Position numbers and translations under genes: made by a program. From Prorocentrum cordatum (Eukaryota): a stretch of 64,000 nucleotides of DNA. The notes beneath the pieces are model-generated. The model was not told the DNA's origin. It did no database searches and saw only the letters and a program-made list of their open reading frames with translations. Within the stretch, counting starts at the first letter, position 1. The number at the start of each line of letters is the position of its first letter. The stretch lies in NCBI GenBank assembly GCA_963575745.1, contig CAUYUJ010000303.1:310001-374000 (forward strand), given 5' to 3'. Below, one piece after another: positions 14,240 to 48,681 of this stretch.

Positions 14240-14440
14240 CGGGGGCAGGCGGGCGCGCCGGCGGCGCTCGCTTGCGAAGAGAAGCCGAATACCGGCCTCC
14301 TCGCTACATACGTTGGCCGCGCTGAGGCCCGAGAGGAAAAATATCATTCAAAATGTCTTGTCATCGAAGATATTCGCACAGCTTGCGCTGAACTCCGAAC
14401 CCGTGGATATATATGCGACCGGATTACCCATAATGAGGTA

Positions 14441-25107: not shown

Positions 25108-25242
25108 CTTGGCATCGCTAGGACGTGTGCATTTGTTCTCGACGAGAACCATCGAGGACCATCCTGGACCATCGAGCAACAAAAAACACGCACGATACCG
25201 AAGCATGCACGGGAACTGGACGTTCGAGCGACGGCAAGTGCC
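25108..25242. repeat. Dispersed repeat of about 135 bp; second copy at about 34760-34892
   Basis: CTTGGCATCGCT..GAGAACCATCGAGGACCATCCTGGACCATCGAGC..CATGCACGGGAACTGGACGT occurs at both sites. Confidence 0.85.
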
Positions 25243-26295: not shown

Positions 26296-26366
26296 TTGGC
26301 ATGTGTCCCTGACAGGCTCCTAGCTGCCCAAAGTTGCTTCAAGAGGAGGGTTGCCGCGCGTGCCTC

Positions 26367-26954: not shown

Positions 26955-27554
26955 TCTAAAGGCTGCCGCCTCTGCCGCCGACCCCAGGGAACATCGGGGA
27001 GGTTAATTTTCTTAGTGCGCGTGGATTTCGCGTTGTGCTTGTCCGTCCTTGGGATTCATCCAAGGGTGCAGTCGGGTAACCCCTTCATGAAGGCGGAACA
27101 GTTTTATTTTCGTCTTGGAGTTTTCTTCGGTTGTCTTGGGGGCTTATGTGGCGGTCTTGGGGGCTATCCCTGGGCCTTCTCGTGTGCTCGTGGGCCCAGT
27201 GGAGGGACGGATGTCACACGTCTGGGATCTCACAATGGGTCGGCGGAGTCGTCTCCCACGGAGGTCCGACAAAATTGATTGCAGCGGCGTCCTCAAGCAA
27301 ACGGAGGTCAGGTGTTCTGGGATGTCCGAGGTGGTGTAGGCCCGTTGCCTGGGGCGGACCCCTTTCGGCATCTTGCGAGGAGGAGGCAGCAGGGAGGAGG
27401 CAGGAGGGAGGATCAGGAGGAGGAGGGAGGAGGGAGGAGGGTGGAGGGAGAAGGGTTGACCGTCCGGTTCAAGCTTCTAAGTCTCTTTTCCTCATCCCTT
27501 CCCCCTCGGCCCCCTCCCTCTTTCAGTTGTTCCCTCCGGCATCTTTGACGGTGT

Positions 27555-30500
27555 TTGTCGCCGTTCAGTCCCTGTCCGTGTTGTTCGGTGTCCGCGCAAC
27601 GTTTCAATTCGGACGTGCAGTTGCCGCATCGGTTCCCCATCACAGATGTTTGTTGCACGTGCGGGAAAGCGTGCGATAAGAAGCTCAACGACGCAGCGAT
27701 CATCAAGGTCGCGCAGATGGCACAGGACGCACAAGCAGGGTACGCCTGCGACTACTGCACGAAGCGCCAACCCATGGCTTTTCACGAAGTGAAGGAGTGC
27801 TGCAAGGGAATAGTGAAACTTAACAGGCAGCTGCAGGGCGAGAATTCGAATCGGATCGGGAAGAGAGTAGCGAACCGAATCATGAGCGACGCGTATGGCA
27901 AGGGCATCGTGCGGGGGCAAGTTGAGTGTGCGAACCTGAGGGCGTTCGCGAGGGAGGACGACGTCACTGCGGCGGAATCATTGAAGTCGTGCCAGACCAC
28001 AGCCTTTTATGGACGCGAGTACGTGGACTTGGTCGAGCGCCTGGCAGACCGCACGCCAGGCGGGCGCAAAGCGCAGTTTGCTGAAGTGGACATGCGGCAG
28101 AGGAGACGCAGAAAGGTGACCTTCCGAGACGTGGCCATGTTGTATGGGCTGCGGCCGAACGTGCCCGACCTGTGGCACTTGTCGCCGTACGAGTTCGCGA
28201 CGTTCTGGACGCCGGTGTTGGTGTCGTTCACCACGAGAGTCGGGGATGCGGACCATCCCCGGCATCACGCTGTTTTGACGCAGAAGGGCATGGACAAGGT
28301 GCGCCAGAATTGTAAGAACCCGAGATGGGAGCAGGACCTGGAACCTGTGGAGGACTACATGGTGAAGGAAGGAGGAGGCGTCGACTGGGTGCCTTATCCA
28401 GAGACAGACGGGCGCGCCCACCTTCGTCACACGTGGGTGCTCAAGCGGAACAACAGACCCAAGGCACCAACCTTTTTCGGAGCGCCCGCGCCACGCGGAC
28501 GTCCTGGAGAAGCGGAGCGATCTGCGCGCATTGTCATGACGTACTTCCACCCGTGGACGTTGAGGCCCGACGCGGCCGACGCGCACGTCGTGTTCGCAGG
28601 GGGCCTGCGCGGCGACGCGCCGACGTGGGACGCGGCCATGGTGTCGTGGCTGGACGGCGGGGTGCAGACACAGGAAGCCGCGCGGTACGTGGGCAACTTC
28701 TTGAGTGTGTACCGCGTCCGGCCACGAGACACTGAAGGAGCGGGGGATGGGACCGACGAAGACGTGAGCGACGAGGAGTTGGACGTGGGCTTCGATCAGC
28801 TCGACGAGGCGCTGAAATCCCGCGTGGGCGGGAAGAGGCGCAAGGACGGCGACGGAGACAGCAGCAGCGAGGAGGACGACGCAGACCCCGGGCAGGGGGC
28901 AGGAGGCGTCTCCCACTACGAAAATTCGAAAGAGGGCATGAGCGTCGCGCAACAGGTGTGGGGGCTCCGCGATGGCGAAACGCCGTTGAGCGAGATTCCG
29001 GGTGCATGGCCCGCAGAGGAGCCCTGCGACGTTGAGCAGGTACTCAGAGAGGCGCGGAAATCTCGGAACAAGGAGCATTCCATGGCGGACCGACTGGCGG
29101 AGGCTGACGGCGCAGTTATCGTCGCTGGCCAGGCCGCGACATCGGAGGACGTTGCCGCGTGGCTCAGGGACCTAGAGGTCCGGGTGGACAAGCAGACGGG
29201 GCGGCGTGTTGTGAATGCGAAGCAGTTCGAGATGGTGATGCAGGTGGCGAATCGAGTAATGCGCGAGATAGACGGCGAGGGAAGTGAGGACGGCAGCATG
29301 GGTGAGCCGCTGCAGTGGTGCATGCACGGGGGCCCTGGGACCGGCAAGTCGCACGTGCTTCGCATTATTCGTCATGAGCTGTTCGAGAAGGTGATGAAAT
29401 GGTCAATCGGAGTGCACTTCCAGATAACCGCCTTGCAGGCCGTCATGGCTCAGCTGCTGGGAGGCGACACCATCCACCATGCGCGTGGCATTCCGGCCAT
29501 CAAGCGGGGGGAAGAGAAAGGGGGGGAGGACGTGAAGTTGCAGTACGAGACTGCGAAGCGACTGCTCCAGTGGAGGTGGCTCTTCATCGATGAGATAAGC
29601 ATGGTGAGCGCTAGACTGCTAGCAGAAGTGGACGCGAAACTTCGCGGGGTCATTCGGGACGTGGGCACGACGAAACTCGGCGACGATGGCGTTCCACGTC
29701 CGTTCGGCGGCCTGAACGTCGTGCTGAGTGGAGATTTCTGGCAGCTGGCCCCCCCTCACGGAGGCTTCCTCGCCGACGTCCCCACGGAGCGGATTTCGGG
29801 TGCGCGCAAGTACACTTCGCTGCCACCCGTGTTGCACGGGCAATCGCTACTGTGGGGCGGGGCCGAGTGTGGGATTCAGGGCGTGACAGAGCTGGAAGAG
29901 TGCGAGCGATGCGACGACGCCTGGTTGAAGGAGGTGCAGGAGGAATTCCGAAGAGGGTCGCTGTCGGCGGATGCGCACGCATTCTTGCACGGCCGGCATA
30001 CGACCGTTCCTGGGAGCTGGTTGGGGGGGGACGTATGCTGCGGGAATCGGGCGTGTCGGGAATTGTGCAGTGGCGGAAGGGACGCAGCGTCGTCAAGCGC
30101 GGGGCAACGACGGAAACGCCCCGTGACGCCGAAAGAGATCCGCGAGCAGGAGTGCAAGGTGTGCAGAGCGGAACGCGCACGCCGCAAGCTCGTGGTGGAT
30201 GGACCCGACGACCCGCGTCTGCAGTCAGACAAGTTCCTCGAGGCGCCGGGTGTGTTCCCAAACAACGACGTGAAGTACGAAGCGAACAAGCTCCGTGCGT
30301 CCCAGTACGCACGCAAACACAGGAAGCCGATGGTGTACGTCCCTGCGCGAGATACGCCAACGCCAGAGGCGCTGCGGGAGCGGCCGGATCTGCCGCAGCA
30401 GAAGATGGCATGGCTTCAACGCCACGACAAGGAGAGCGGGGACTTGTACGGCTTCTTGCCCATCGCTGAAGGCATGCCCGTCGCTCTGACCGATCATATC

Positions 30501-31412
30501 GATCGAAGCGAGGATAAAAACCTGCTGCGCGGTCGCGTGGGCCGGGTGCAATCCTGGGCATGCGACGGGGACGGCGTCGATGATCGAGTCACGCGCGGCG
30601 GGGAGACCATATTGAAGAAAACTCCAAAAGTGATTTTCGTGTTGTTCGACGAAGGCGATGGCGGGAACGGCGGCAGGAAGCCATGCCAGTGGACGATCGA
30701 GGGATTGAAGACGCCCGGCTTGTACCCCGTGATTCCGCAGAAGAAGGATTGGTTCGTGGACAAGGGCCGTCCGCATCCGCGACTGAAGGTCAAAAGACGG
30801 CAGTTCCCGCTGGCTCCGGCCTTCGGAGTGACGGCCCATGCGGCGCAGGGGCAGACGTTCAAGCAAGGTGTCATAGTGGACCTGAGCATCGGCGGGGGCA
30901 CGTCACCTCTGTCGAGCTACGTGGCACTGACGCGGGTGCAGCGCCGCGAGGACATGCTGATCTTTCGCCCTTTTCGATATTGCGCCGTATCAGAAGAAGG
31001 ACGAACGGAAGGGCCCGGACTTACTGCTGCGCACGTTGCGCGGAGAAGAATTGGACTGGGAGGCGATAGAGCGGGAGTTCATGCCGTCTGGCAGGTGCGC
31101 GGTCTGCGGGTGCACGAAGTACAAGAACATGTACCCGACGGTCGGGCAGTGGAGCCGCGCAAATGGGCTCCGCGTGTGCAGCGTGTGTCTGGAAGAGAAG
31201 AAGAGGTCCGGCACGCCATGGCAATGCATGGAGTGTGGCCTATGGAAGAGCCAGGAGGCGTTCCACGCGTCGCAGCACCACCCGTCGAAGTTGACCACGC
31301 GGCGCTGCGTGGACTGCCCCGAGAGGCGGAAGTGTTACGTATGCGAGGTGCGGAAGTACGAGGATGCGTTCGTGGAGTTGCAATGGGAGAAGGCAGGGAA
31401 CGCCCGATGTAA
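27555..31412 (+). CDS. Helitron RepHel C-terminal part: Rep motif III plus Pif1-family helicase
   Basis: NSDVQ..YACDYCTK (two-tyrosine motif III), GGPGTGKS (about 29328-29351), FIDEISMV, GDFWQL, RRQFPLAPAFGVTAHAAQGQT, YVALTRV. Frameshift near 30975. Confidence 0.9.
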   Translation: MSPFSPCPCCSVSAQRFNSDVQLPHRFPITDVCCTCGKACDKKLNDAAIIKVAQMAQDAQAGYACDYCTKRQPMAFHEVKECCKGIVKLNRQLQGENSNRIGKRVANRIMSDAYGKGIVRGQVECANLRAFAREDDVTAAESLKSCQTTAFYGREYVDLVERLADRTPGGRKAQFAEVDMRQRRRRKVTFRDVAMLYGLRPNVPDLWHLSPYEFATFWTPVLVSFTTRVGDADHPRHHAVLTQKGMDKVRQNCKNPRWEQDLEPVEDYMVKEGGGVDWVPYPETDGRAHLRHTWVLKRNNRPKAPTFFGAPAPRGRPGEAERSARIVMTYFHPWTLRPDAADAHVVFAGGLRGDAPTWDAAMVSWLDGGVQTQEAARYVGNFLSVYRVRPRDTEGAGDGTDEDVSDEELDVGFDQLDEALKSRVGGKRRKDGDGDSSSEEDDADPGQGAGGVSHYENSKEGMSVAQQVWGLRDGETPLSEIPGAWPAEEPCDVEQVLREARKSRNKEHSMADRLAEADGAVIVAGQAATSEDVAAWLRDLEVRVDKQTGRRVVNAKQFEMVMQVANRVMREIDGEGSEDGSMGEPLQWCMHGGPGTGKSHVLRIIRHELFEKVMKWSIGVHFQITALQAVMAQLLGGDTIHHARGIPAIKRGEEKGGEDVKLQYETAKRLLQWRWLFIDEISMVSARLLAEVDAKLRGVIRDVGTTKLGDDGVPRPFGGLNVVLSGDFWQLAPPHGGFLADVPTERISGARKYTSLPPVLHGQSLLWGGAECGIQGVTELEECERCDDAWLKEVQEEFRRGSLSADAHAFLHGRHTTVPGSWLGGDVCCGNRACRELCSGGRDAASSSAGQRRKRPVTPKEIREQECKVCRAERARRKLVVDGPDDPRLQSDKFLEAPGVFPNNDVKYEANKLRASQYARKHRKPMVYVPARDTPTPEALRERPDLPQQKMAWLQRHDKESGDLYGFLPIAEGMPVALTDHIDRSEDKNLLRGRVGRVQSWACDGDGVDDRVTRGGETILKKTPKVIFVLFDEGDGGNGGRKPCQWTIEGLKTPGLYPVIPQKKDWFVDKGRPHPRLKVKRRQFPLAPAFGVTAHAAQGQTFKQGVIVDLSIGGGTSPLSSYVALTRVQRREDMLIFRPFRYCAVSEEGRTEGPGLTAAHVARRRIGLGGDRAGVHAVWQVRGLRVHEVQEHVPDGRAVEPRKWAPRVQRVSGREEEVRHAMAMHGVWPMEEPGGVPRVAAPPVEVDHAALRGLPREAEVLRMRGAEVRGCVRGVAMGEGRERPM

Positions 31413-32031
31413 AGGAGGAATGTGCCTCGAGTGCGAGGAGCCCAAGCGGCACTTGAAGTGTTCACGCTGCGGCCAGGAGCAGATGCGTGTCGAATTTTCT
31501 AGAGCGGAGCAGTGCATGGACGAACCGACATGCAAGTCGCGTAAGGCGTCGCAGAGAAAGGAGGAGAAGGCGCAGGCGGAGGCAGAAAAACGGGCAGTAT
31601 GCTCTAAGTGCGGTGGGTCGAAGACGAAGGCAGAGTTTTCCAGGTACACTCTGGACCACGCGGACAGAGCGTCGGTAGTTTGTACCACGTGCGTGGACGC
31701 CGCGGCTGCAGAGCGGGACGCGCAATCAAGGAAGTATTTGAAGACGTGCGCGAGGTGCGGGAAACGTCAGCGGCGCGAGTTCTTTTCGGGTCGCATGTGG
31801 GCCAACGTGGCTGATCAGGACCGCAAGTGCATGCGTTGCGTCGAGGAGGCGAGGGTGCAGCGCGGATGTTGGAAATGCATAGGCTGCAAGGACGTGTTCC
31901 CGAAAGTGGATTTCTGCCGCTGGTTGGCCAAGCGGACAACGAAAACATCAGATGGGAAGCAACGCTGCAACCAGTGCTTCGAACACGAAGAGCGTAAGAG
32001 GAAGGAGGTCGCCGATCGGAGTTGGGAATAG
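31036..32031 (+). CDS. Cys-rich tandem zinc-ribbon tail of RepHel (frameshifted continuation)
   Basis: About six CxxC..F..CxxC modules directly after helicase motif VI. Confidence 0.75.
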   Translation: MRGEELDWEAIEREFMPSGRCAVCGCTKYKNMYPTVGQWSRANGLRVCSVCLEEKKRSGTPWQCMECGLWKSQEAFHASQHHPSKLTTRRCVDCPERRKCYVCEVRKYEDAFVELQWEKAGNARCKGGMCLECEEPKRHLKCSRCGQEQMRVEFSRAEQCMDEPTCKSRKASQRKEEKAQAEAEKRAVCSKCGGSKTKAEFSRYTLDHADRASVVCTTCVDAAAAERDAQSRKYLKTCARCGKRQRREFFSGRMWANVADQDRKCMRCVEEARVQRGCWKCIGCKDVFPKVDFCRWLAKRTTKTSDGKQRCNQCFEHEERKRKEVADRSWE

Positions 32032-32119
32032 GTGACAAAGAAAGGAAGGTCGCAGTAGCGATGACGCGGCGGGGCGTTGCAGAATGTCGCTCGTTGCGGG
32101 TGCCCTGCGCGGTCCCAGG

Positions 32120-33030
32120 AACTGAGTCTCCATGGGGTAGGGGTGTCGGGGCGTCGTGGGGGCGTGGTGGGGGCGTGGTGGGGGGTATCGGTTGGTTGTG
32201 GGCGACAAATGGTGGGGTGGGGGGCCACAAGAACAGAGGCTCCATGGGGTGGGGATGCCGGGGCGTGGTGGGGGGGTATCGGTCGGTTTTGGGCGACAAA
32301 TGGTGGGGTGGGGGACCCCAAGAACAGAGGCTCCATGGGGTTGGGATGCCGGGGCGTGGTGGGGGGTATCGGTCGGTTTTGGCGAAAAATGGTGGGGTGG
32401 ATGGCCCTAAGAACAGAGGCTCCATGGGGTGGGGATGCCGGGGCGTGGTGGGGGGCATCGGTCGGTTTTGGGCGAAAAATGGTGGGGGGTGGGGGGCCCC
32501 AAGAACAGAGACTCCATGGGGGAGTGATGCCGGGGCGTGGCGGGNNNNNNNNNNNNNNNNNNNNNNNNNNNNNNNNNNNNNNNNNNNNNNNNNNNNNNNN
32601 NNNNNNNNNNNNNNNNNNNNNNNNNNNNNNNNNNNNNNNNNNNNTGTGGGCGGAAAATTGTAGGGTGGGGGGGTCCGAAGAGCAGAGGCTCCATGGGGTG
32701 GGGATGCCGGGGCGTGGTGGAGGGTATCGGTCGGTTTGGGGCGAAAAAAGGTGGGGTGGGGGACCCCAAGAACAGGGTCCATGGGGTGGGGGTGCCGATG
32801 CGTGGTGGAGGGTATCGGTCGGTTTTGGGCGAAAACTCGTAGGTTGGAGGTCCAAGAACAGAGGCTCCATGGGGTGGGGATGCCGGGGCGTGGTGGGGGG
32901 TATCGGTTGGTTTTGGGCGAGAAATGGTGGGGTGGGGGGCCCCAAGAACAGAGGCTCCATGGGGTGAGGATGCCGGGGCGCGGTGGGGGGTATCGGTCGG
33001 TTTTGGGCGAAAAATGGTGGGGTGGGTGCC
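32120..33030. repeat. Subterminal minisatellite of element A (about 85-90 bp unit; contains an N-gap)
   Basis: Repeated CCAAGAACAGAGGCTCCATGGGGTGGGGATGCCGGGGCGTGGTG..TATCGGTCGGTTTTGGGCG. Confidence 0.9.
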
Positions 33031-33146
33031 GGGGCATGGAGGGGGGTGTTGGTCGATTGTGGTTTCGGGGGAGATTTCGGGCGAGAAATTGTCGGGTGTG
33101 GTATCCAGCTCAAACGGATATCGCACACGCCTCCGGGGTCGGCGGA

Positions 33147-33674
33147 TTGGATAGGCTTGACCATCAGCGAGATTTGGGCATATTGGGGCCATGGGCCCTG
33201 ACATGGCGGTATGACGATATGGTCGATCCTGTTAAAGTCCAAGACTCGTTTGACCATCTGGCCGGCTATTCATTTCGAGAGAATGCGGGGGGCGCTTGGA
33301 TGAGACGAGCTTGGGGTTTTCTGTATGACAATCACGTTGCCCTTCCTCCCCGTGACAAGTGGGCGATTGTTGCGGGAACTGCTTTCTGGGCCCGCTCAGC
33401 ACCGCTGTTGCGAAACCCATGTCTATTCGCCGCTATATCTCGGTGGCTGGCGATTTTGGAATATAGTTACGATTCAAACTGTCGTAATCAGACGGCTTGC
33501 CTAGATGTTTATGGATTGGAAAGGGTCCTTCCGACAATGATAGCATCTGAATACGCGCTTCTTGTTGCGGAGGCCCCCAACAAGTTCCGCCTACATGATA
33601 CACGCAACCACTGCTGCCGGCAGAGAGACTGCATGTCGTCATGCGCATACGCGCTACCTCCACCGAGTGTGTAA
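33147..33674 (+). pseudogene. RgpF-like retrogene, 3' part
   Basis: LDRLD..LGILGP..VAGTAFWAR..YGLERV are typical RgpF C-terminal motifs; in frame with the 5' part (CAC ATA | TTG GAT), giving about 371 aa. Confidence 0.75.
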
Positions 33675-34959
33675 GTAGAGCTTCGTGCGAGTCTGGCGGA
33701 CCAAACACATGCATCTCAGGATATCCTTTTAGACGGCTCAACAAGCCCCCATTGCTAAAATGAACGCCTCAGTATGTAATTATTTAATGTGTTCCGATGC
33801 CGGACAGCACACCATGTTGGCAGCGGATCGGCGGCTGGCCTATTCGACGCAGCACGCTTTGGCTCGATTTTCATGCGAACTCCTGTAGGCCGCCCTCTTA
33901 CGGACGAGAGGGTCGGGGAGCCATTCGTGTCGAACAAAAAGTCTCTCTGCTCTTCCTGCTTGTCTGCCAGCCAGTCTTCTTGGTTGCTTTGCATGCCGGA
34001 CGGTTTGCTGGCCGGCCTTCCCCTGTTCGATTAACCGGTTGCGTGCCCGTCCGTCTGTCTGCCTGTCCGCCTGCTTGTCGTGCGTCTGTCCCCCGGTCCG
34101 TCTGTCGGGTTGCCCATCCTTTCGGGGGCCCCCAAACGGTGTGGTGACCACAACGTGTGGTGAGTCGGTGGGGATTCGGGATCTTTTTTGTTCTGCGGCC
34201 CGCAAGGAAAAGTCCAGAGGCCGTGTCAATCAGGCAAACTGGGGCACAGAGCCAGATAATTCGTGCACATGCACAACAAATTGGGGAAAACGAGCAGAGG
34301 GATTCGGGATCACCGCACCGCACGGTTTTGGGACTCGAGGCCCCCTCCGAGGATGTCTCGGGCGACAGGGGCCTCTGGGGTCCCAAGACCGTGCGGTGAG
34401 GGAGCGTGCGGTGAGGTCTTGGGGGATTTCGAGGTCACTCCACGGTGCGTCCGTCACCGCACCGTTTCGGGACTCCAAATCATTCTGTGAGCGTGGGCAG
34501 GCGTGAGCAGGGGTCAGCGCGCGAGACTGCTGATTCGGAGGAGGGTTCTCGCCTCGCGCTCATGGAACGCAGAGGGATGGTGACGGACGCGGGCACAGGC
34601 AGGTTGTTTTGTGCATCCGATGTTATAGAAACTAGGTTTCAAGATGGTGAACACCCCCTGAATACTCAAAGGTTGTTTTGTTCTGGGTTTTGTTGCATGG
34701 TTTTTTGTCCGTTGTGTTCAGTCTTCGGTTTTTCAGTCTTCAATGTCAGGAATATTGCACTTGGCATCGCTCGGACGCGTGCATTTGTTCTCGGCGAGAA
34801 CCATCGAGGACCATCCTGGACCATCGAGCCAAAAAAACACGCACGATACCCAAACATGCACGGGAACTGGACGTGCGAGCGGCGGCAAGTGCATGCGACG
34901 AGCGCGTCGTAGAGTCGCTGAAGCATGCCGCGCGGCCGGGGCCGGCGCCTCCGTGCCAG

Positions 34960-35011
34960 CAGTACTGCGACGAGAACGACCTGCTCTTCATGGAGACGTC
35001 TGCGAAGACCG
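34960..35011 (+). CDS. Probable isolated exon of a Rab GTPase (Rab5-like, G5 motif)
   Basis: QYCDENDLLFMETSAKT flanked by CAG| and |GTGAG; no other Rab exon was recognised in the window. Confidence 0.55.
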
Positions 35012-36159: not shown

Positions 36160-36420
36160 GCGGCGGCCAATGCATGCCAACGCAAGCCAATGCATGTCAT
36201 GGGATGCCAAATCATGCTAATGCATGCCAGCGCATTGGCATGCATTCGCATGCGTTGGCATGTATTTGCATGCATTGGCATGCATTGGCATGCGTTGGCA
36301 TGCATTGGCATGCATTGGCACGCATTGGCATGCGTTGGCATGCCTTGGCATGCATTGGCATGGATGGGTATGCTTCGGCATGCAGTTGCATGCTTTGGAA
36401 TGCGTTGGCATGCATTGGGC
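36160..36420. repeat. (TGCATTGGCA)n microsatellite
   Basis: Seen directly. Confidence 0.9.
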
Positions 36421-39400
36421 GGGGGCGCGAGTGGGCGGCGGGCGGGCGCGCGGGCGGGCGGCGGGCGGCGGGCGGGACCGGGATTTTAATAGAACTCCTA
36501 AGGAGGGTGTCTTGCAGCGGGAGCCTGTTGAGTACAAGGTGTTGTGTTGGGCACGGAGGTTGTTGAGTACTGGGTGTTTTGTAGGACACGGAGGCTGTTC
36601 AGTACTGGGTGTTGTTTTGGACACAGACAGAGCTGAGCACAAGGAGAGCGCGGGCGGGCGGCGGGCGGAATCGGGATTTTAATTGAACTCCTAAGGAGGG
36701 TGTCTTTCAGCGGGAGTATGTTGAGTACGGTGTTTTGTGGGACACGGAGGCTGTTGAGTACTGGGTGTTGTGTTGGACACGGGGGATGCGGAAGGGTTTC
36801 AGGGAAGGGCGCACCAGAGACCTCGAGCCACATATGTTTGAGTGTGATGATGATGTTGATGATGATGATGGTGTTGATGACGAGTGCTCATGTTAATTAT
36901 GAGTATGACAGGGAATGATCATGTAGGGGGATATTTAACATGGTAGTCCCCAGCTGGAGCCATGTCTTTTTCATGTGTCCAGGCCACCCAATGTGGTATC
37001 CAGCATGTGTGCCCCGAGTTGGAACCACGTGTTTTCACGTGTCCAGGCCACCCACGGGGGTATCTAACATGGAATTCCCGAGCTGGAGTCATGTGTTTTT
37101 GCGTGCCTAGGCCGCCCAGCGGGGTATCTAACACGGTTACCCCTAGCCGGAACACGATGTTTCACGTGTTCAGGCCACACCAGGAGGGCCTCTAGCATGG
37201 CGGTCCCGAGCTGGAGCCATGTGTTTTCAAGTGTCTTGGCCATCCAGGGGGGTATCTATCATGGTGGTTCCGAGCTGGAACCACGTGCTTTCATGTGTCC
37301 ACGCCGCATGGCGGTTCCGAGCTCAAAACACGCGTTTTCACGCGTCCAGGCCACAGGGGGTTATCTAACATTGTTAACCCGAGCTGAACCACGTGTCTTT
37401 CGCGTGGCGCGGCCAGTTTTCGGCCTCCAGATCCCCGTTCTGAGCCCCACGACCGTCTAAAAACGATCCCGGATGAGAAACTGACCCTGGGGAGAGGGTC
37501 GTGTCTTCTGGGGGCCGACTTGGGCCGTCTCAGGGGGCTCTTCACCGGTCTGACGCCTTCGGAGGGGCCGTCTTGAGGGGCCTCTCTCCCCCCCGCCTCT
37601 CTCTCTCTCTCTCCTTCTCTCTCTCTCTCTCTCCTTCCCTCCCTCCCCCCTTCTTGGGTGTTGTGTTGGATACGGAGAGCGAGGGCGGGCGACGCGCGGG
37701 CGGGCGGCGGGCGGCGGGCGGGATCGGGATTTGAATCGAACTCCTAAGGAGGGTGTCTTGCAGCGGGAACCTGTTGAGTAGAGGGGTGTGTGATGGACGC
37801 GGAGGCTGTTCAGTACTGGGTGTTGTGTTGGACACGGAAGCTGTTGAGTATTGGGTCTTGTGCTGGACACAGAGAGAGTTGAACACAAGGAGCGGGGGCG
37901 GGCGGCGGGCGGGCGCGCGCGTGGGCAGCGGGCGGCGGGCGGGATTTTAATAGAATTCCTAAGGACGGTGTCTTGCAGCGGGGACCTGTTGAGTACAGGG
38001 TGTTGTGTTGGACGCGGACGCTGTTGAGTACAGGGTGTTGTGTTGGCACGGAGGCTGTTGGGTTTTGTGTTCTGTGTTGGACACGGAGAGCGTTGACACA
38101 AGGAAAGCGGGGGCGGGCGGCGGGCGGGCGCGCGGGCGGGCGGCGGGCGGCGGGCGGGATCGGGATGTGAATCGAACTCCTAAGAATGGTGTCTCGCAGC
38201 GGGAGCCTGTGGAGTACAAGGTGGTGTTTTGGGCGCGGAGGCTGTTGAGTACTGGGTGTTGTGTTGGACACAGAGGCTGTTGACTATTGGGTCTTGTTTT
38301 GGACACAGAGAGAGTTGAACACGATGAAAACGGGGGCGGGCGGCGGGCGGCGGGCGGTATCGGGATTTTACTGGAACTGCTAAGGAGTGTGTCTTGCAGC
38401 GGGAACCTGTTGAGTACAGGGTGTTGTGTTGGGCACGGAGGCTGTTGAGTACAGGGTGTTGAATTGCGCGCGGAGGCTGTTGAGTATTGTGTTCTCTGTG
38501 TTGGGCACGGAGAGCGTTGACACAAAGAGAGCGGGGGCGGGCGGCGGGCGGGCGCGCGGGCGGCGGGCGGCGAGCGGCGGGCGGGATCGGGATTTGAATC
38601 GAACTCCTAAGGAGGGTGTCTTGCAGCGGGAGCCTGTGGAGTACAAGGTGTTGCGTTGGGCACGGAGGCTGTTGCGTACTGGTTGTTGTGTAGGACGCGG
38701 AGGCTGTTGAGGATTGTGTTTTGCGTTGGACACATCGACTTGAGCACGATGAGAGCGGAGGCGGGCGGCGGGCAGTCGGGCGGCGGGCGCGGGCGGGATC
38801 GGGAAATTAATGGAACTCCTAGGGAGGGTGTCTTTCAGCGTGAACGTGTTGAGTACACGACGTTGTGTTGGGCACGGAGGCTGTTGAGTACGCGGTGATG
38901 TGTTGGGCGCGGAGGCTGTTCAGTTTTGGCTGTTGTGTTGGGCACAGAAAAGCTGAACACAAGGAGAGCGGAGGTTGTTGGCGGGCGGGCGCGCAGGCGG
39001 GCGGCGGGCGGCGGGCGGGATCGGGATTTTGATAGAACTCCTAATGGAGGGTGTGTTGCAGCGGGGGCCTGTTGATTACAAGGTGTTGTGATGGGCACAG
39101 GGGTTATTGAGTATTGGGTGCTTTGTAGGACGCGGAGGCTGTTAAGTATTGGGTGTTGTGTTGGGCGCAAAAAAAATGAGCACAAGGAGAGCCGGGGCGG
39201 GCGGCGGGCGGGCGCGCACCTGTGCGGCGGGCGGCGGGCGGGATTTTATTACAACTCCTAAGGGTTGTCTTGCAGCGGGGACCTGTTGAGTACATGGTGT
39301 TGTGTTGGACACGGAGGCTGTTGAGTACTGGGTGTTGTGTTGCACGCGGGGGCTGTTGAGTATTGTGTTCTTTGTTGGACACGGAGAGCGTTGACACAAA

Positions 39401-41175
39401 GAAAGCGGGGCTGGGCGGCGGGCGGGCGCGCGGGCGGGCGGCGGGCGGCGGGCGGGACCAGGAGTTTGATAGAACTCCTACGGAGGGTGTCTTGCAGCGT
39501 GTGCTTGTTGAGTACAAGGTGGTGTGTTGGGCACGGGGGCTGTTGCGTACTGGGTATTTTGTAGGACACGGAGGCTATTCAGTATTGTGTTCTGTGTTGG
39601 ACAGAGAGAGTTGAGCACGATGACGGCGGGGGCGGGCGGCGGGAGGGCGCGCGGGCGGGCGGCGGGCGGCGGGCGGGATCGGGATTAGATTGGAACTCCT
39701 AGGGAGGGTGTTTTTCACCAGGAACCTGGTGAGTACGGGATGCTGTGTTGGGCACGGCGGCTGTTAAGTACTGGCTGCTGTGTTGGACACAGAAAAAGCT
39801 GAACACAACGAGAGCGGGGGTTGTTGGCGGGCGGGCGGCGGGCGGCGGGCGGGATCGGGATTTTAATAGAATTGTTGAGGGTGTCTTGCAGCGGGGACCT
39901 GTTGAGTAAAAAGCGTTGTGGTGGGTACGAAAGCTGCTGAGTATTTGGTGATGTGTTGGGCACGGGGGCTGTTGACTATTGTATTTCGTGCTGGAGACGG
40001 GGAAGGTTGACCACAAGGAGACCAGGGACGGGCGGCGGGCGGGCGCGCAGGCGGGCGGCGGGTGGCGGGCGGGATCGGGATTTTAATAGAACTCCTGAAG
40101 AGGGTGTTTTGCAGCGGGGACCTGTTGAATACAGGGTGTTGTGTTGGACGCGCAGGCTGTTGAGTACTGGGTGTTATGTTGGACAGAGAGTGTTGAGCAC
40201 AAGGCGAGCGAGGGCGGGCGGCCGGTGGGCGCGCCGGCGGGCGGCGGGCGGCGGGCGGGATCGGGATTTTTAATGGAATGATTTTAATGGAATGTTTAAG
40301 GAGGGTGTCTTGCAGCGGGGACCTGTTTAGTACAGGGTGTTGTGTTGGACACGGAGGCTGTGGGGTACTTGGCGTTGTGTTGGGAACGGAGGTTGTTGAG
40401 TTGTGTGTTTTGTGTGAGACACGGAAAGCGTTGACAAAAGGAGAGCGGGGGCGGGCGGCGGGCGGGCGGCGGGCGGCGGGTGGGACCGGGATTCGAATAA
40501 AATTCCTAAAGGGGGGGTATTGCAGCGTGTGCTTGGTGAGTACAAGGTGTTGTATTGGGCACGGAGGTTGTTGATTATTGTGTTTTGTGTTGGACACGGA
40601 GGCTGTTGAGTATTGGGTGTTGTTTTGGACACAGACACAGTTAAGCACGATGAGAGCGGGGGCGGGCGGCGGGCGGGCGCGCGGGCGGACGGCGGGCGGC
40701 GGGTGGGATCGGGAGTTTAATGGAATTTCTAAGGAGGGTGTCTTGCAGCGGGGACCTGTTGAGTACTGGATGTTGTGTTGGACGCGGAGGCTGTTGCGTA
40801 CTGGGTGTTGTGTAGGACACGGAGGCTGTTGAGTATTTGGTGTTGTGTTTGGCACAGGCGCGCGGGCGGGCGGCAGGCGACGGGCGGGACCGAGATTTTC
40901 ATAGAACTCCTATGGAGGGTGTCTTGTAGCGGGAGCCTGTTGACTACAGGGGGGTGTTGTGTTGGACACGGGCGTTGTTGAGTACAGGGGGTTGTGTTGG
41001 ACACGAAAGCGGTTGGGTTTGGGGTGGTGTTGAATACAGTGCGTGTGTGTGTGTGTGTGTGTGGTGGGGGGGGGGGGACGTGGAGGCTGTTGAGAACTGG
41101 ATGTTGTTCGGACACGGGGGATGCGGAAGGGGTTCAGGGAAGGGCGCACCAGTGACCTCGAGCCACATATGTTGG
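36420..41175. repeat. Satellite array, about 200-bp unit (GGCGGGC tract, GGGATTTTAATAGAACTCCTAAGGAGGGTGTCTTGCAGCGGG, CTGTTGAGTAC subrepeats)
   Basis: About 18 diverged units in two blocks (36420-36840 and 37650-41175). Confidence 0.92.
36925..37400. repeat. About 60-bp tandem repeat (TATCTAACATGG..CCCGAGCTGGA.CCA.GTGTTTTCA.GTGTCCAGGCCAC)
   Basis: About 8 copies. Confidence 0.85.
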
Positions 41176-41179
41176 TGAG

Positions 41180-41390
41180 TGTGATGATACTGTTGCTGCT
41201 GATGATGATGAGGATAAGGATGAGAATGATGATGAACATGATGATGATGATGATGATGAGGATGATGAGGATGATGATGATGATGCTGATGATGATGATG
41301 ATGATGCTGTTGAACATGATGATGGTGGTGATGATGATGATGCTGATGATGTTGATGATGATGATGATGATCATGATGATGATGAGGATG

Positions 41391-41461
<71 letters not shown>

Positions 41462-41530
41462 AATGATGACGACGACGATGATGATGCTGATGAGGATGAG
41501 GAGGAGGAGGAGGAGGAGGAGGAGGAGGAG
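41180..41530. repeat. (ATG)n and (GAG)n microsatellite
   Basis: Seen directly. Confidence 0.95.
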
Positions 41531-41939
41531 GTTTCTCGGGTGCCTCTTTCAGCTTCCAGAGAGCTTTTCGGGCCGTCTTGAGCCGATCTTGAAGGGCCCG
41601 TAGGCCGCTTTCCACGCTCGTAACACCTCAGGGGCCCGATGCGACAATCAGAGGAAAACCTTACGAGTTTGCGCATTGTGTTGTTTCTTTGCAGCGCTAG
41701 TTGGAGCTCCTTTGGGGCTTTCTTCGGCCGTCATTCGGACGCCATGCGGCGTGTTGGGGTTGTCTCTGCCGTTTTGGAAGTTTTGGCCCTGGCATCGGAT
41801 GTTGATGCTAATTCTAGGGCTTGTTTCGACAATCCACTTTAATTGCCCCCTTCATTTGCCACGGGGGGGGGGGGGAAGAACCCGCCTGGGGAAAATTATC
41901 CCAGTGCGACCCTACCTAGGAGTTGGAGCATTTAGGAAA

Positions 41940-42700
41940 GCAACATCTACATCTACACCGACAGCTACATTTACATCTACTCCTGCATCTACATCTACAG
42001 CAACATCAACAGCGAGACTCACATCTACATCTACACCTACACCTACATCTACACCTAAATCTACGTCTACATCTGCACTGCAGGTCCGGCTTTGCGTTGT
42101 TTTTGTTTTGTTGTGTTGTTGTTGCTGTTGATTTGCCTTTGTTTTGCTGATATGGTGTGCTATGCTATGTTATGCGGCGCTATGCTATGCTATGCTATGT
42201 TGCGCTATGCTATGCTATGCGATGCTTTGCTATGCTGCGCTATGTTATGTTATGCTATGTTATGCTAGGGTAAGCTCGGCTGCGCTGTGTTACGCTAGGC
42301 TATGGTATGCTATGATATGCTATGCTATGTTATGCTGCGCTATGCTATGCTATGCTATGCTGCGCTAGGCTATGATCTGATATGTTATGCTGTGCTATGC
42401 TGTGCTAAGCAATACAATGCTATGCGATGCTATGCTGCGCTATTGCTATGCTATGCTATGCTATGCTATGCTTGGCTATGCTATGCGGTGCTGTGCTATG
42501 CTAATGCTGCGCTGCGCCATGCTGCGCTAAGCTACGCTAAGCTAGGCTAAGCTAAGCCAAGCTAAGCTGAGCTAAGCTAAGCTAAGATGAGATCAGCTAA
42601 GCTAGGCTAAGTTAAGCTACGCTAGGCCAGGCAAAGCTAAGCTAAGCTAAGATGAGATAAACTAAGCTAAGCTTGGCTTAGCTTTGCTTAGCTAAGCTGG
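41940..42700. repeat. Compound microsatellites (ACATCT)n, (GCTAT)n and (GCTAA)n
   Basis: Seen directly. Confidence 0.9.
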
Positions 42701-43768: not shown

Positions 43769-43880
43769 GAGGCCCTCTGTGACAGAGGGGGTGTTTTTTC
43801 GGAGGCCCTCTGTGACAGAGGGGGTGCGTTCGGAGGCCCTCTGTGACAGAGGGGGTGCGTTCGGAGGCTCTCTGCGACAG
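43769..43880. repeat. 31-bp tandem repeat with palindrome CCCTCTGT-G-ACAGAGGG
   Basis: 3.5 copies. Confidence 0.85.
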
Positions 43881-44310
43881 AGTTGCTCGTCATCCCGTTC
43901 CTCGTCATCCTGCTTCTTGATTTCGGATATGTCATGCTACCACTGCGCTCATCATCTTTGCGTCTGTGATCCTCGTCGTGTTTTTTTCCATGCGTCCTTT
44001 TCACAATTTCCACCACATTATCCTCCGTTGCCGTTCTGGCCCGCCATCTACCTCGTCACTCTCCTTCGTCTGCATGTCCTTATTCTTTTCCGCTCTTTTT
44101 TCGCCTCCCCCTCTGGTTCGATTTCCGCTCTTAGTCCACTTCGTTCATCCGTTTCCAACCCCCCTTCCTTTCAAGTTCTCCGCCGTCCAATCACATCGCG
44201 TCGTCCGTCGCCGCTATGCTCAAACCATCCCGCGCCCGTGGGATCGCCCGCGAGCACCGGTGCAGCTGGGCCCGTCGCGGCCTAACGCGCGCCTGCGCCA
44301 TCGTCTTGCA

Positions 44311-44744
44311 ATGGGCGATGCAGGCGGATACACATGGGGTGGCGCGGGAGGATGGTGGGATAGCCGCAGCAGCGGCTGGCGTGGCTGGGAGGACGGCCAT
44401 GATTGGTCAGCGAGGGGTTGGAGAGACTGGCGACAAGACGGGCACACGCCAACGGAGGACGCCAAATGGCGCGATGGCCCTGCCGCCGCAGCAGCGGCGG
44501 CGGTCTCGCCTCAACGGCCGTCTCGCTTCGCCGCGCTTAGCGTTGTGAGCCCCCGCGCCCCTGGTCTCGGCATGCCCGAATTCGATAATTTCGTGAGGGC
44601 TGCCCTCCGAAACTCACCAGAACCTGGGAACACAGTTTCAGGAGAGGGGTCGGGATCCCGAGCCGCGCCTGCGGCGCAGGAGCCCCGCGCCACCGCAGCG
44701 GCGGCGGCGCGCGGGCCCCAGGATTTTGAGAAGTTTGATGTTAA
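44311..44744 (+). pseudogene. Unknown gene, 5' part (G/W-rich N-terminus), split by element B
   Basis: ATG at 44311; reads ..QDFEKFDVN up to the element left end. Confidence 0.55.
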
Positions 44745-45935
44745 TCTAAAGGCTGCCGCCTCTGCCGCCGACCCCAAATTGGGGTACTGTGTTCGGTGTT
44801 TTGTGTTGTCGTGTTCTGTAGCTAATGGGCGACGCCGAAGTCGCCAGGCGCATGGCTGCCTTTAGAGCCGCCCGTTACCTGGTCGGGCGGCTGTGGTACC
44901 ACGTTGCTGGTGCACGGTCTTTGCGTTTGTTGCACTGGTGGGGAGGGGGGGGGGGCGGGACAGCCAAGTATCTCACACCCCTTTCACCCTAGGCAAGCGA
45001 GGGTCGGCGAATTGTCTTGCGGATCCGAGTCCTACTTCTACTCCTCGGGTTGGGAGGACGGGGTTGGGAGGAATGTTGGTGTCATCCATGCCGCCGCGCA
45101 TGTGGAAGGTGCTGATTGCACAGTCGTGCCTTGTACCTTCTCAAGCAGAGTTGTCTTTCTCACTGTGAGATGGCCCCCGAGGCCGAACACGCATTTTCCG
45201 TCGTGCTCGCGCGCCGCAGCGGGAGGGCCCGGAGGTTAAGTCGGGCGGGCCCCTCTACAGGGGGAATTTCCAAATATAGTCACACAAATAGTCCGGGGAC
45301 GATTTATTCATTCTTGTTGGTTATTTTTGATTATGTTTTCTGGCTTTTTGTCAAAAAAGGTTTGTCGAAAACCCGCCTGCAGGGGGGCGTGCCCGACTTA
45401 ACCCTGGAGCTCCTGCAGGGCTCTGCGGGCCGTCGGCCGGCTCCCGCGGCGCCGGCCACGGAAGCCCGGCGCGCGCGGCGACGCGGCCCGGCGGGAGCGC
45501 ACGACGCGAGGGGTTGAGGCGCCGAGGGTCCCTCGGGTGCGCAGCCAACGCAGGCCCCCTCGCGCTGCGAACAAGTCTCGACGGGGGGGCGGGGGAGGAG
45601 GGAGCCCTCCTGGGAGCAAGGAGAGGCGACACCACCACCGCCACCAGCGCGACGCGCCAGGGGGGGGGGATCTTTCTGCTTCCCGGTGGCGCGGTTCTTC
45701 CTGCCGGAGGTGCCCGCCCCCCCCCCCTTTTGTGGTGTTGCCCAGACCTTTCGCGCTGTGAAATCAACGCGACGGGAGTTCGGCCTCCGAGGGCCCTTCC
45801 CAGAATCCGGGCCGTCAACAAAAACGACTCGGGATGAAGAACCTGTCCCAGAGAAAGGGTCCAGACCTCTTATGGGGGTCGACGTAGCTAAAAAGTCACG
45901 ACGTCGGGGGTCTGGGAAGATGGCGGGGGGCGACA

Positions 45936-47252
45936 ATGGCCCCCCGGAGGGGGGTTGGAGCTCGCGGCCAGGGCCCTGGTAATTACCTCTCCAGGTCACG
46001 CGGCCCCCTCTTCTTTTTTCAATGGGTCCCTTGGCCCCCCCCCACTCCCTGTGCCGCGCACGTGCCTCTCGGGCCCTGCTCCGCGAACCCCCCTCTGGGA
46101 CGGCTCCCCTCTCGGACGCTCCGGCCACGCACGGGCGCGGAGCTTGCAGGCATCGCGTCTGTGATCTTGAAGTCGGGCGGCGACGACGATGCTGCTGCAA
46201 GCGTGGCCACGTTCGTGCACCAAGCTCTCGTGCGCAGGAAGGTGGTCGTGGATCTCATCGAGGGGGTGAAGGCTCGCGGGCATCGCGCGTACAGGAACGT
46301 GGACATGGATGAGGTCCGGAAAAGAGCCATGGAGCTGCCGGAGGAGGGCGTGCCACCGGAGATCATGCGCCTGGTACCCCTGGACGACGCGCTTGAGAAG
46401 ATCCAAATGCAGAAGGCGGCGACGCCCGTGCCGAGGCCCGACGGGCTACGTGAGGCGGGAGACATTTTGGATACTACGAAGGCGAACGCTGTGGTGTGTG
46501 AGAAAAGCAGTTTCGATGAGGGAGACATCAATGCGCAGCGGATTGAGGCCGTGCGGACCTTCGTGCAACGGCTAGATGAGGAGTGCGCGCATGGCGGGGC
46601 CGACGACACGTCGAACTCCAGCGAAGACGAGGAAGGCGGCTGGAAGGCAGAACGGGCAAGTAAACGCGGCCGCGTCCGCGAGCAAGCGGCCTCGAGCGCG
46701 GATGAGGCGGCGCGAGAAGCAGTGGAGCGCGACATGCTGAGTCAGGCCGGCCGCGAAAGGAAGCGCGTGGATCGGCTCCGCGTGCGCACTGGAAACGTTA
46801 TGATGGATCAGTTCGAGCCCTGGTATTTCGGCGTCGCGTTCGCGTTTCTGTTTAGGTATTGCACGGGAATGCCTGACTGCCCAGAGTTCATGAAGCGCCC
46901 GCGCCACCGACGGGGGAACGGGGCGCCGCGGGTGGAGCTGCCGCTGTGGGTGAGGATAATGAGTCGTCGCGTGGAGAGCCAGATTTCCCGCGACTGGCAC
47001 TTCGGATTCGTGTCGTGGAACCTTGTGTTTCGATCGGCTGTGAACCTGAGCAGGACGTGGTTCACGTATGTGACAGCGAACGCATCAGGCGAGGTCGAAC
47101 AGCTCTCTCCCGCGGAAATCGCGGAAGGAGTGAAGCAGATGTATCGCGCGCTCGACGGGAAGTACGTAGACATCAACAATAGGAAACAGAAAGTAAACGG
47201 CGACATGACCAAAAGTGCGGCACGTGCCAGGGTTGGGGAAAGCCGCCCATAA
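45936..47252 (+). CDS. Helitron RepHel N-terminal region
   Basis: VRRKVV.., QFEPWYFGVAFAFLF..G.PD, W.FGFVSWNLVFR resemble the region preceding Helitron Rep. Credible coding starts near 46140; frameshifts into the next ORF near 47215. Confidence 0.7.
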   Translation: MAPRRGVGARGQGPGNYLSRSRGPLFFFQWVPWPPPTPCAAHVPLGPCSANPPLGRLPSRTLRPRTGAELAGIASVILKSGGDDDAAASVATFVHQALVRRKVVVDLIEGVKARGHRAYRNVDMDEVRKRAMELPEEGVPPEIMRLVPLDDALEKIQMQKAATPVPRPDGLREAGDILDTTKANAVVCEKSSFDEGDINAQRIEAVRTFVQRLDEECAHGGADDTSNSSEDEEGGWKAERASKRGRVREQAASSADEAAREAVERDMLSQAGRERKRVDRLRVRTGNVMMDQFEPWYFGVAFAFLFRYCTGMPDCPEFMKRPRHRRGNGAPRVELPLWVRIMSRRVESQISRDWHFGFVSWNLVFRSAVNLSRTWFTYVTANASGEVEQLSPAEIAEGVKQMYRALDGKYVDINNRKQKVNGDMTKSAARARVGESRP

Positions 47253-48004
47253 GCTGCTGATGCACATAGAGCACACTTCGCGGCGACTGTCTGGAACGCA
47301 GGAAGCTCGTCGAGTCATGCGGTTTGAGACGAACGCGCTGCACGTACGGTACGGCGTCCCCATATTCGTAACTTTCTCGCCCGACGAAGGTCACAATCTG
47401 CTCATGGTGAGACTCTCGCGTAGTCGCAGGCAGGACCCCGTGCACAAGGCAGCTGATGATGAAACGCACTCGCGGCTGGCGGGGGGTCGGGGCTGGCCGC
47501 GCGTAGCCCCCGACATCGATGGGCTGCTCATGGACTTGCCGATGGCCACGGGGGAGGCAGGAGTGCCGCCATGGAACGAGCGCAGACGAATTCTCGCGAG
47601 AGATCCCATGGCCAGCGTGGACGGCTTCCGTATCCTGGTGGACGCCACGCTCCGTCACTTGTTCGGCGTGCGGACCTGTCCGAACTGCCCGCGGTGCAAC
47701 GAGGCGGAGAATGGGGCACCTTGCCAGGACCTGTTCGGGAGTAATGCTCAGCCCGGGGGAGGCGCGTTCGGGCGCGTTGATGCCTACTACGTGTCGATCG
47801 AAGCGCAGAAGTCCACGGGGTCTCTCCACGCGCACTGCCAGGTATTCATCCAGTGCCTGCACCAGCACACACCGCTGGAAGAGGTATTCGAAATCGTCCG
47901 CGACGAGGTGGAAGGCCGTGGAAGGAAGATCGTGGAGGATTATTTGAAGTATAAGAGTCGCGTGTGCCGCCAGGTTTACTCGGAGCAAATGACACAGAAG
48001 GAGA
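47215..48004 (+). CDS. Helitron Rep HUH endonuclease motifs I-II (truncated by gap)
   Basis: YGVPIFVTFSP (motif I), RDP, FGRVDAYYVSIEAQKSTGSLHAH (motif II; HUH at 47827-47835). Confidence 0.88.
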
Positions 48005-48104
48005 NNNNNNNNNNNNNNNNNNNNNNNNNNNNNNNNNNNNNNNNNNNNNNNNNNNNNNNNNNNNNNNNNNNNNNNNNNNNNNNNNNNNNNNNNNNNNNNN
48101 NNNN

Positions 48105-48565
48105 TTGGGACAGAATTTGTCGAGTGGGGGGCCCCAAGAACAGAGTGCTCTCGGGGTGAGAATGCCAGACGAGGGAGGAGCCAGGTGGGGGGCGTGGGTA
48201 GGTTTTGGGCCAGAATTTGTCGAGTGGGGGCCCCAAGAACAGAGCCAGACCAGGGAGGGGCCAGGTGGGGGCGTGGGTAGGTTCTCCAGAATTTGTCGAG
48301 TGGGGGGCCCCAAGAACAGAGTGCTCTCGGGGTGAGAATGCCAGACGAGGGAGGGGCCAGGTGGGGGGCGTGGGTAGGTTTGGGCCAGAATTTGTCGAGT
48401 GGGGGGCCCCAAGAACAGAGTGCTCTCGGGGTGAGAATGCCAGACGAGGGAGGGGCCAGGTGGGGGGCGTGGGTAGGTTTTGGGTCAGAATTTGTCGAGT
48501 GGGGGGCCCCAAGAACAGAGTGCTCTCGGGGTGAGAACGCCAGACGAGGGAGGGGGCCAGGTGGG
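48105..48565. repeat. Subterminal minisatellite of element B (about 100-bp unit)
   Basis: Repeated CAGAATTTGTCGAGTGGGGGGCCCCAAGAACAGAGTGCTCTCGGGGTGAGAATGCCAGACGAGGG. Confidence 0.9.
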
Positions 48566-48681
48566 GGCCGTGGAGGTGGGGGTGTCGGATCAGGTCGACG
48601 GCGGGGCGGCTTGGGGCGAAAAATTGTCGGGTGTGGTATCCAGCTCAGAAGGATATCGCACACGCCTCTGGGGTCGGCGGA

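Follow-up and report, generated by a model that had tools for sequence, protein, structure and literature searches.

Two gene-splitting insertions in Prorocentrum cordatum that very probably belong to one Helitron2-type element family

Two genes in a 64,000-nucleotide (nt) stretch of the dinoflagellate Prorocentrum cordatum (assembly GCA_963575745.1, contig CAUYUJ010000303.1, positions 310,001 to 374,000 of the forward strand; "the window") are each split by an insertion, here called element A and element B (Table 1). Which kind of mobile DNA made these insertions, and do the two belong together? Very probably, A and B are two insertions of one HLE2 rolling-circle family that is widespread in dinoflagellates and is of Helitron2 type, i.e. 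with a combined Rep and helicase protein (RepHel) without endonuclease. A previous examination of the letters alone (the sequence-only reading) had proposed a non-canonical Helitron-like family with Helitron2/Helentron-type ends, and the Rep, the PIF1 helicase, the inverted repeats and the missing CTRR bear this out. The class was set by domain content and end layout in comparison with published descriptions (PMC4067079, PMC5148889, PMC11417382); here and below, published work is cited from excerpts of the respective sources.

The 32-nt left end TCTAAAGGCTGCCGCCTCTGCCGCCGACCCCA was matched exactly twice in the window (26955 and 44745, plus strand; 0 expected), each time preceded by A, and the right end CGCACACGCCTCNGGGGTCGGCGGA likewise twice (33122-33146 and 48657-48681; 0.01 expected). 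Together with the following TT, the right block common to A and B is 73 nt long (93% identity). Apart from this block, the 32-nt left block (100%) and minisatellite units, BLAST of A versus B gave no similarity. Both shared ends lie where the sequence-only reading had placed them, and its subterminal inverted repeat is present in both elements: the 11-nt sequence CCGCCGACCCC is located 20 nt inside the left end, and its complement GGGGTCGGCGG is separated by 1 nt from the right block's end. Pairing is perfect over 11 nt, and over 12 nt in B. The minisatellite core CCCCAAGAACAGAG, also predicted to be common to both elements, was found 11 times with at most one mismatch (6 in A, 5 in B), as compared to 0.07 expected matches. 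The elements start with TC and end with GGCGGA(TT) on the plus strand and TTTAGA(T) on the minus strand. Neither is CTRR, as had been noted for the right ends of A and B, and the canonical Helitron signature therefore fails. Each element contains a 100-N assembly gap, so that the apparent length of B (3.9 kb) is not real. In viral contigs, neither end was matched (0 matches).

The insertion sites were defined by homologues of the interrupted genes. For the protein left of A (P0002), 79 homologues were found in a representative library; 38 of them can be aligned to the protein on the right (P0003) as well. The two alignments abut without a residue lost or gained in 15 of the 38 (e.g. between residues 92 and 93 of P0095, and 223 and 224 of P0093); in the other 23, they end a few residues short of the junction or have small indels. 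Because the alignments abut, the uninterrupted gene can be read as ...QVKHI-LDRL... (...CAC ATA TTG GAT...), with the empty site ...CACATATTGG... and an insert of exactly 6192 nt. As A and T recur at both junctions, this empty site would result from any of the three cut registers A^TT, AT^T and ^ATT, and likewise from a 2-nt AT duplication; the target is ATT, and the duplication is at most the dinucleotide AT. Insertion at AT without a longer target-site duplication, as first proposed, was thus right as to the duplication, but the site is more precisely ATT (A at 6 of 6 left junctions, TT at 3 of 3 right ends). For B, 26 homologues of the downstream flank were found, and P0181 and P0173 span the junction. 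Joining the flanks of B by the rule derived from A gives ...GAT GTT AAT TAT TTT (D-V-N-Y-F), where relatives have D-V-D-Y-F. Since both homologues span the junction and the join is 1 nt short at a run of five T, the boundary of B is confirmed within 1 nt. Both insertions hence split genes as claimed, with the A junction placed to the codon, and the empty site to which the sequence-only reading had looked as a check is represented by intact homologues of the A host gene. Paralogues of the insertion sites were not found within the window.

The annotated gene model P0092 (250 amino acids (aa), window 26334-27400) is 100% identical to the left flank of A, enters A by two codons and resumes at about 27249, just past an internal right-end-like motif, so that its annotated intron lies inside the transposon end. 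Such a model would suit elements that act as introners and are spliced from host transcripts, with both host genes functional. Dinoflagellates are introner-rich, and Helitron-derived introners were reported in fungi (PMC12130899). However, of the three excision registers that are equivalent for A, not one combines a GT, GC or GA start with an AG end, the P0092 model stops short of the downstream gene half, and the element size is at least 6 kb. A role as introners is hardly credible.

Near the host genes, a direct repeat of 138 bp (93% identity; 25104-25241 and 34756-34892) flanks the gene interrupted by A. A duplication of about 1 kb (91% identity; 49385-50382 and 51233-52282), with a low-complexity repeat, is located downstream of the B host gene.

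Copies outside the window were obtained from metagenome contigs (loci L001-L004). Together with A and B, these give six left junctions, all of which read A followed directly by TCTAAAGG. Up to and including the junction A, the sequences are TTTA, CGGA, TCAA, TTTA, CATA and TTAA; the DNA upstream is unrelated. Similarity drops sharply at the left-end boundary, and this drop is not a product of the 31-mer by which the loci were chosen. L001 and L003 match at 99.7% identity along 1304 bp of the element and have different flanks, which makes them one element at two sites. L002 is a whole non-coding copy of 1.26 kb, mainly tandem repeats, with the same left end and, close to the contig end, the right end ...CACACGCCTCC-11 nt-GGGGTCGGCGGATT (spelled ...CTCACACGCCTCC-cgcttacgcaa-GGGGTCGGCGGATT). 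As L002 has both, left and right ends pair in an independent non-coding copy, which agrees with the earlier assignment of the two as the ends of one element. Right ends total three (A, B and L002), each followed by TT; L001, L003 and L004 share the left end. Precise insertion at ATT with a duplication of at most 2 nt, ends common to coding and non-coding copies, and near-identical copies at different sites were all observed. Because 99.7% identical copies occur at different sites in two metagenome contigs, the family may still move in natural marine populations.

L003 (18-kb contig) also contains an open frame of at least 1795 aa at 4866-10250, rich in R, G and A. This frame had no Pfam match, no similarity to A or B and no Atlas neighbour, and the minus-strand frames of L003 had no Pfam match. 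It was considered as a cargo gene and rejected; given its composition, the missing Pfam match and the lack of A/B similarity, it is probably no real gene.

The protein-coding content joins A and B into one element type. The remnant frame of A (P0001) matches PIF1 (Pfam E 1.8e-15; PDB PIF1 chains E 1.5e-10) and is 52% identical to P0005 over residues 12-1156. Its two-tyrosine motif (YxxxY), GYACDYCTKRQP, is located shortly after the start of the open reading frame (ORF). ORF2 of B matches Helitron_like_N of Pfam with 40.6 bits (cut-off 28.9; E 4e-10). The HUH and YxxDY columns are kept in 14 relatives; in the window, the HUH motif is on B and the tyrosines are on A. Homologues of P0001 (n = 87) have Polarella, Durusdinium and Symbiodinium as named sources. 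Homologues of the B Rep number 129, and among the 120 matches listed the nearest named ones are P. cordatum models (89-93% identity), with Effrenium present. In the long relative P0016, DUF6570 (residues 456-617), Rep (967-1167) and PIF1 (1938-2079) follow each other. On this protein, B ORF1 maps to 557-958, B ORF2 to 958-1213 and A to 1354 onward. Rep and PIF1 are found in a single chain in P0016 and P0042, and four P. cordatum gene models hold a B-like Rep (88-93% identity), an A-like helicase (91-98%) and the tail in one protein. As they correspond to successive parts of P0016 that are joined in the P. cordatum models, A and B are complementary remnants of one element type. The view that they are unrelated elements sharing ends only was ruled out by the successive mapping on the same relatives and by the co-occurrence in P. 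cordatum models.

Both copies are 5'-deleted: homology to RepHel sets in 598 nt after the start of A and 1381 nt after that of B, with unrelated DNA before. A lacks the N-terminal portion of RepHel and with it the HUH motif, whereas B is without the first part of the protein and is then cut by the assembly gap. Judged from this coding content, neither A nor B, as assembled, is able to move by itself. DUF6570 was recorded in 13 of the 87 relatives of P0001 and in 39 of the 120 listed relatives of the B Rep (129 in all), and was confirmed by hmmscan for P0016 and P0042. Homology of B begins within the DUF6570 of these two proteins, and Pfam gave no match on B ORF1. The Rep part of B had no match in PDB at E 1. 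AP-endonuclease or other endonuclease families were found neither in A, P0016, P0042, P0005 and P0015 nor among the domains of the 87 and 120 listed relatives, and the family is therefore assigned to the Helitron2 type rather than to Helentrons.

The Cys-rich tail aligns to the C-termini of relatives as a conserved array of CxxC...F..W...CxxC modules. This substantiates the zinc-ribbon tail of the sequence-only reading; in Pfam, the tail matches Stc1 only (E 9.6e-4, below cut-off). The repeated modules may serve to read the element ends.

Reading frames are broken at three places by 1-nt differences in homopolymer runs (A 30975-30990, T4; B 47209-47216, A4; B host gene 48685-48689, T5). Single-nucleotide differences in homopolymer length are typical of consensus errors in long-read assemblies. 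Because each of the three breaks sits in a run of 4-5 bases, they may be assembly errors and not mutations.

The P. cordatum models P0254 and P0278, which contain cellulase (PF02015) or cold-shock (PF00313) domains, also hold Rep, helicase and tail segments. They are either other copies in or next to genes or chimeric gene models.

The abrupt start of RepHel homology in the middle of the protein, after 0.3-1.1 kb of unrelated DNA in both elements, also bears on a different origin of the ends. The ends could stem from a short non-coding (HINE/DINE-like) family, L002 being an example, with A and B as chimeras that carry truncated RepHel pieces as passengers. Transfer that set out from a RepHel element end may have continued until it met the terminal signal of a miniature element nearby or nested within, and the first 270-300 bp of A and B may be that miniature element. 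In keeping with this, a right-end-like motif occurs in both A and B, 230-295 nt from the left end and on the same strand, the internal DNA next to the left end is different in each copy apart from L001 and L003 (the same element), and the window has few exact matches to the 9-mer GGGTCGGCG. In its loose form, however, the motif was no commoner than in random sequence (17 seen, 13.6 expected), so that we treat a miniature-element origin as conjectural. Moreover, the internal motifs are degenerate in sequence and not immediately adjacent to the RepHel homology, and orientation and order of RepHel relative to the ends are the same in A and B. A chimeric origin is unlikely; if true, it would refine rather than replace the assignment of A and B to one HLE2 family, since the elements stay in the same Helitron-like family.

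The layout of the ends was compared with the descriptions of HLE2 elements, which have short asymmetric inverted repeats (12-16 nt; PMC11417382), stem-loops and insertion between T and T. DUF6570 is an HLE2 marker according to the HELIANO paper (PMC11417382), where an ORF reversed relative to the ends is named 'HLE2-reverse'. In the description of Helentrons and DINE-1/HINEs, one repeat is set 2-4 nt from the 5' end and its partner 38-60 nt from the 3' end. A 3' palindrome and a short nested repeat are further features, tandem repeats often occur internally, and at least one element has an ORF in minus orientation (PMC4067079). When A and B are read on the minus strand, 1-3 nt separate the repeat from the 5' end, a CGCC...GGCG pair is nested in it, and 20 nt separate the partner repeat from the 3' end, with AGGC-GGCA-GCCT behind this partner. 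As the Helentron/DINE-1 plan fits the minus strand only, the ORF is reversed relative to the ends. The Helentron-type layout of the sequence-only reading hence matches the canonical plan, but only on the strand opposite to the ORF.

An 11-nt inverted repeat near both ends would also suit a cut-and-paste element with a 2-bp AT duplication, in which RepHel is cargo or a neighbouring remnant, and the empty site is formally compatible with such a duplication. Yet the left repeat is set back 20 nt from the end, unlike a terminal inverted repeat structure, and no transposase family, DDE or otherwise, turned up in A, B or L001-L004. RepHel is the sole enzyme between the ends, whose layout matches that of published HLE2 ends (PMC5148889, PMC11417382, PMC4067079). 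We regard a cut-and-paste origin as very improbable.

Several observations weigh against the assignment to an HLE2 rolling-circle family. No complete autonomous copy was seen; both A and B are 5'-deleted, and B has an assembly gap in its middle. Pfam finds no DUF6570 in B itself, and a profile of 15 family sequences finds PIF1 helicases in PDB, but not Helraiser (7lcc) at E 0.01. Sequence AGGC-TGCC-GCCT, previously taken as a hairpin, exists, and its position suits the stem-loop expected of HLE2 elements beside one inverted repeat, but its 4-bp stem and 4-nt loop (-3 kcal/mol, z +0.76 versus shuffles) lack thermodynamic support; stability above that of shuffles was found at neither end, with the right end of L002 as the nearest case (z -1.85). 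The ATT target fits the published T^T rule of HLE2 in the register AT^T, and equally allows A^TT or an AT duplication. The joined frame of the B host gene is 1 nt short in the run of five T. Finally, the metagenome loci were picked by exact match to the 31-nt left end, so that identity within this end is by construction, and a right end is visible in just one of the four (L002).

From A, B and their relatives, a full element of the HLE2 family would begin with TCTAAAGG..., a small stem-loop and the 11-nt inverted repeat. One very large plus-strand RepHel gene would follow, encoding in order an N-terminal region, DUF6570, the HUH/two-tyrosine Rep, a long linker, the PIF1 helicase and the zinc-ribbon-like Cys tail. 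Its 3' part would consist of the minisatellite and then the right end ...CACACGCCTC-GGGGTCGGCGGA. By analogy with the known mechanism of the family, the tyrosines of Rep would nick one strand at one end, the helicase would peel the nicked strand off to the other end, where it would be cleaved, and the ends would be joined to a single-stranded circle for insertion at ATT. It is possible, if doubtful in its entirety, that this is the first dinoflagellate family from a deep Helitron2/Helentron-related lineage with both ends, the ATT target, the empty site and a non-coding miniature defined, that it is still mobile, that the internal motif records a chimeric origin, and that the tail reads the ends.

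Table 1. Positions of elements A and B, their parts and the interrupted host genes in the window.
Feature	Position	Strand	Remarks
Element A, internally deleted copy	26955..33146	+	6192 nt; excision restores host frame and homologue alignment
Layout of element A			left end, ~600 bp unrelated DNA, C-terminal two thirds of RepHel, minisatellite, right end
A left terminal sequence	26955..26986	+	4-bp stem-loop 26960-26971, then CCGCCGACCCC 26975-26985; identical in B and four metagenome loci
Internal right-end-like motif of A (CACACG...GGGTCGGCGGAGT)	27215..27250	+	~260-295 nt from left end; suggestive only
A RepHel remnant ORF P0001, 1285 aa	27555..31412	+	GYACDYCTKRQP near start; PIF1-like helicase residues 590-733 and 1066-1140
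Cys-rich C-terminal tail of A protein, other frame	30961..32028	+	repeated CxxC...F..W...CxxC modules; frame switch at 30975-30990
A subterminal minisatellite, period ~90 bp	32170..33026	+	interrupted by 100-N gap 32545-32644
A right terminal sequence	33076..33146	+	ends CACACGCCTCCGGGGTCGGCGGA, then TT; inverted repeat 33135-33145
A host gene, upstream part, RgpF-like protein	26313..26954	+	junction after ...SKDQVKHI
A host gene, downstream part	33147..33674	+	begins LDRLDHQ...
Element B	44745..48681	+	left end, ~1.4 kb without homology, N-terminal part of RepHel to HUH, gap, minisatellite, right end
B left terminal sequence	44745..44776	+	inverted repeat 44765-44775
Internal right-end-like motif of B (CTCACACCCC...GGGTCGGCGAATT)	44972..45013	+	suggestive only
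B ORF1	45888..47252	+	residues 80-442 match P0016 557-958, between DUF6570 and Rep in relatives
B ORF2, Rep (Helitron_like_N)	47209..48003	+	motifs PIFVTFSPDE and LHAHCQV (HUH); connected to ORF1 through a 1-nt frame shift (A4 run, 47209-47216); cut off by 100-N gap 48005-48104
B subterminal minisatellite, period 99/176 bp	48111..48573	+	
B right terminal sequence	48611..48681	+	inverted repeat 48670-48680, then TT
B host gene, upstream part (...RGPQDFEKFDV-N)	44311..44744	+	83% identity to P0181 residues 7-84; 64% to P0173 residues 1-113
B host gene, downstream part (LFLSYEERLGTSFKQHNQ...)	48682..49392	+	T5 run 48685-48689 leaves joined frame 1 nt short

Elsewhere in the window, a chain of very long open frames (1355, 577, 1334, 1630 and 568 aa) extends over 4877-20832 on the plus strand. 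It contains a Copia-type reverse transcriptase (RVT_2) at 19129-20832, pieces of a Tpt1/KptA RNA 2'-phosphotransferase split across 8686-10416 and 10235-14236, and a RING finger, and is probably a large retroelement or a fused array of mobile genes. The DNA between A and B (36190-42700) is mostly satellite, composed of 10-bp repeats (36190-36430), a repeat of about 220 bp with 35-bp sub-repeats (36425-40950), (GAT)n-like repeats (41110-41600) and 5/10-bp GCTAT-type repeats (42100-42700).

Mobile elements are poorly annotated in the huge, repeat-rich genomes of dinoflagellates. The family of A and B would escape standard Helitron finders, which seek TC...CTRR ends. Since its two ends and its target are defined and an empty site has been checked, this family can serve as a seed for genome-wide annotation, including gene models that fuse transposon pieces with host genes (P. 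cordatum Rep fragments with cellulase or cold-shock domains). Rep, DUF6570 and PIF1 domains of dinoflagellate transposons were described as abundant in ocean protein catalogues (bioRxiv 10.64898/2026.09.23.753693), and knowing the element behind them aids the interpretation of those signals. To Helitron biology, the family contributes an HLE2 form with reversed ORF and without endonuclease, from a third eukaryotic supergroup. It leaves the accepted view of how Helitron-like elements work unchanged, and the result is useful for annotation and unsurprising to the specialist. The sequence-only reading had called the dinoflagellate version little characterised. This applies to its ends, which are undescribed in the searched literature, but a Helitron2-like RepHel of dinoflagellates is already in print (PMC8788227), so that the novelty is smaller than implied. 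In the excerpted literature on dinoflagellate Helitrons, supplements aside, no description of ends, target or non-coding derivatives of such a family was found.

Among known systems, canonical Helitrons (HLE1; Helraiser, 7lcc) share with A and B the HUH/two-tyrosine Rep fused to a PIF1-like helicase, the TC start in ORF direction, and the A before and T after the element. The family described here differs by the absence of CTRR and of a hairpin 10-12 nt from the 3' end, and by the presence of inverted repeats. To Helraiser itself, only a weak helicase match was obtained (E 4.7e-5), and the family profile did not match it at E 0.01.

Helentrons, HINEs and DINE-1 elements (PMC4067079) are alike on the minus strand, with the 5' repeat, the nested CGCC...GGCG and the 3' partner repeat with palindrome. 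Internal tandem repeats are frequent in these elements, and L002 consists mostly of tandem repeats; Helentron-Da-40 has a minus-orientation ORF as well. Unlike Helentrons, the present family has no AP-endonuclease domain in A or in the 87 and 120 listed relatives, and no T runs at both boundaries, as described in PMC4067079. The 3' repeat is 38-60 nt from the end in Helentron mite elements (PMC4067079), as opposed to 20 nt here.

The RepHel of Symbiodinium microadriaticum (CAE7237458.1), which branches outside Helitron2 and Helentron (PMC8788227), is also a dinoflagellate RepHel without endonuclease, and its element was called Helitron2-like. The passages on CAE7237458.1 in PMC8788227 give no end sequences or target site. 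Relatives of the A/B family include models from Symbiodinium, Durusdinium, Effrenium, Polarella and Prorocentrum.

HLE2-reverse elements (FoHeli3-5 of Fusarium oxysporum and proto-Helentron of Phytophthora; PMC5148889, PMC11417382), as far as these excerpts describe them, have unrelated end sequences and a plain TT target instead of ATT. In addition, the RepHel of the present family is much larger (about 2100 aa or more in relatives) and carries the repeated Cys-module tail, and a minisatellite lies next to one end. Both have a RepHel without endonuclease, no CTRR and no long target duplication, and relatives of the present family carry DUF6570. Short inverted repeats with one subterminal member (11-12 nt in the present family) are likewise common to both, and a putative small stem-loop, in ORF direction, occupies the corresponding place between left end and left repeat.

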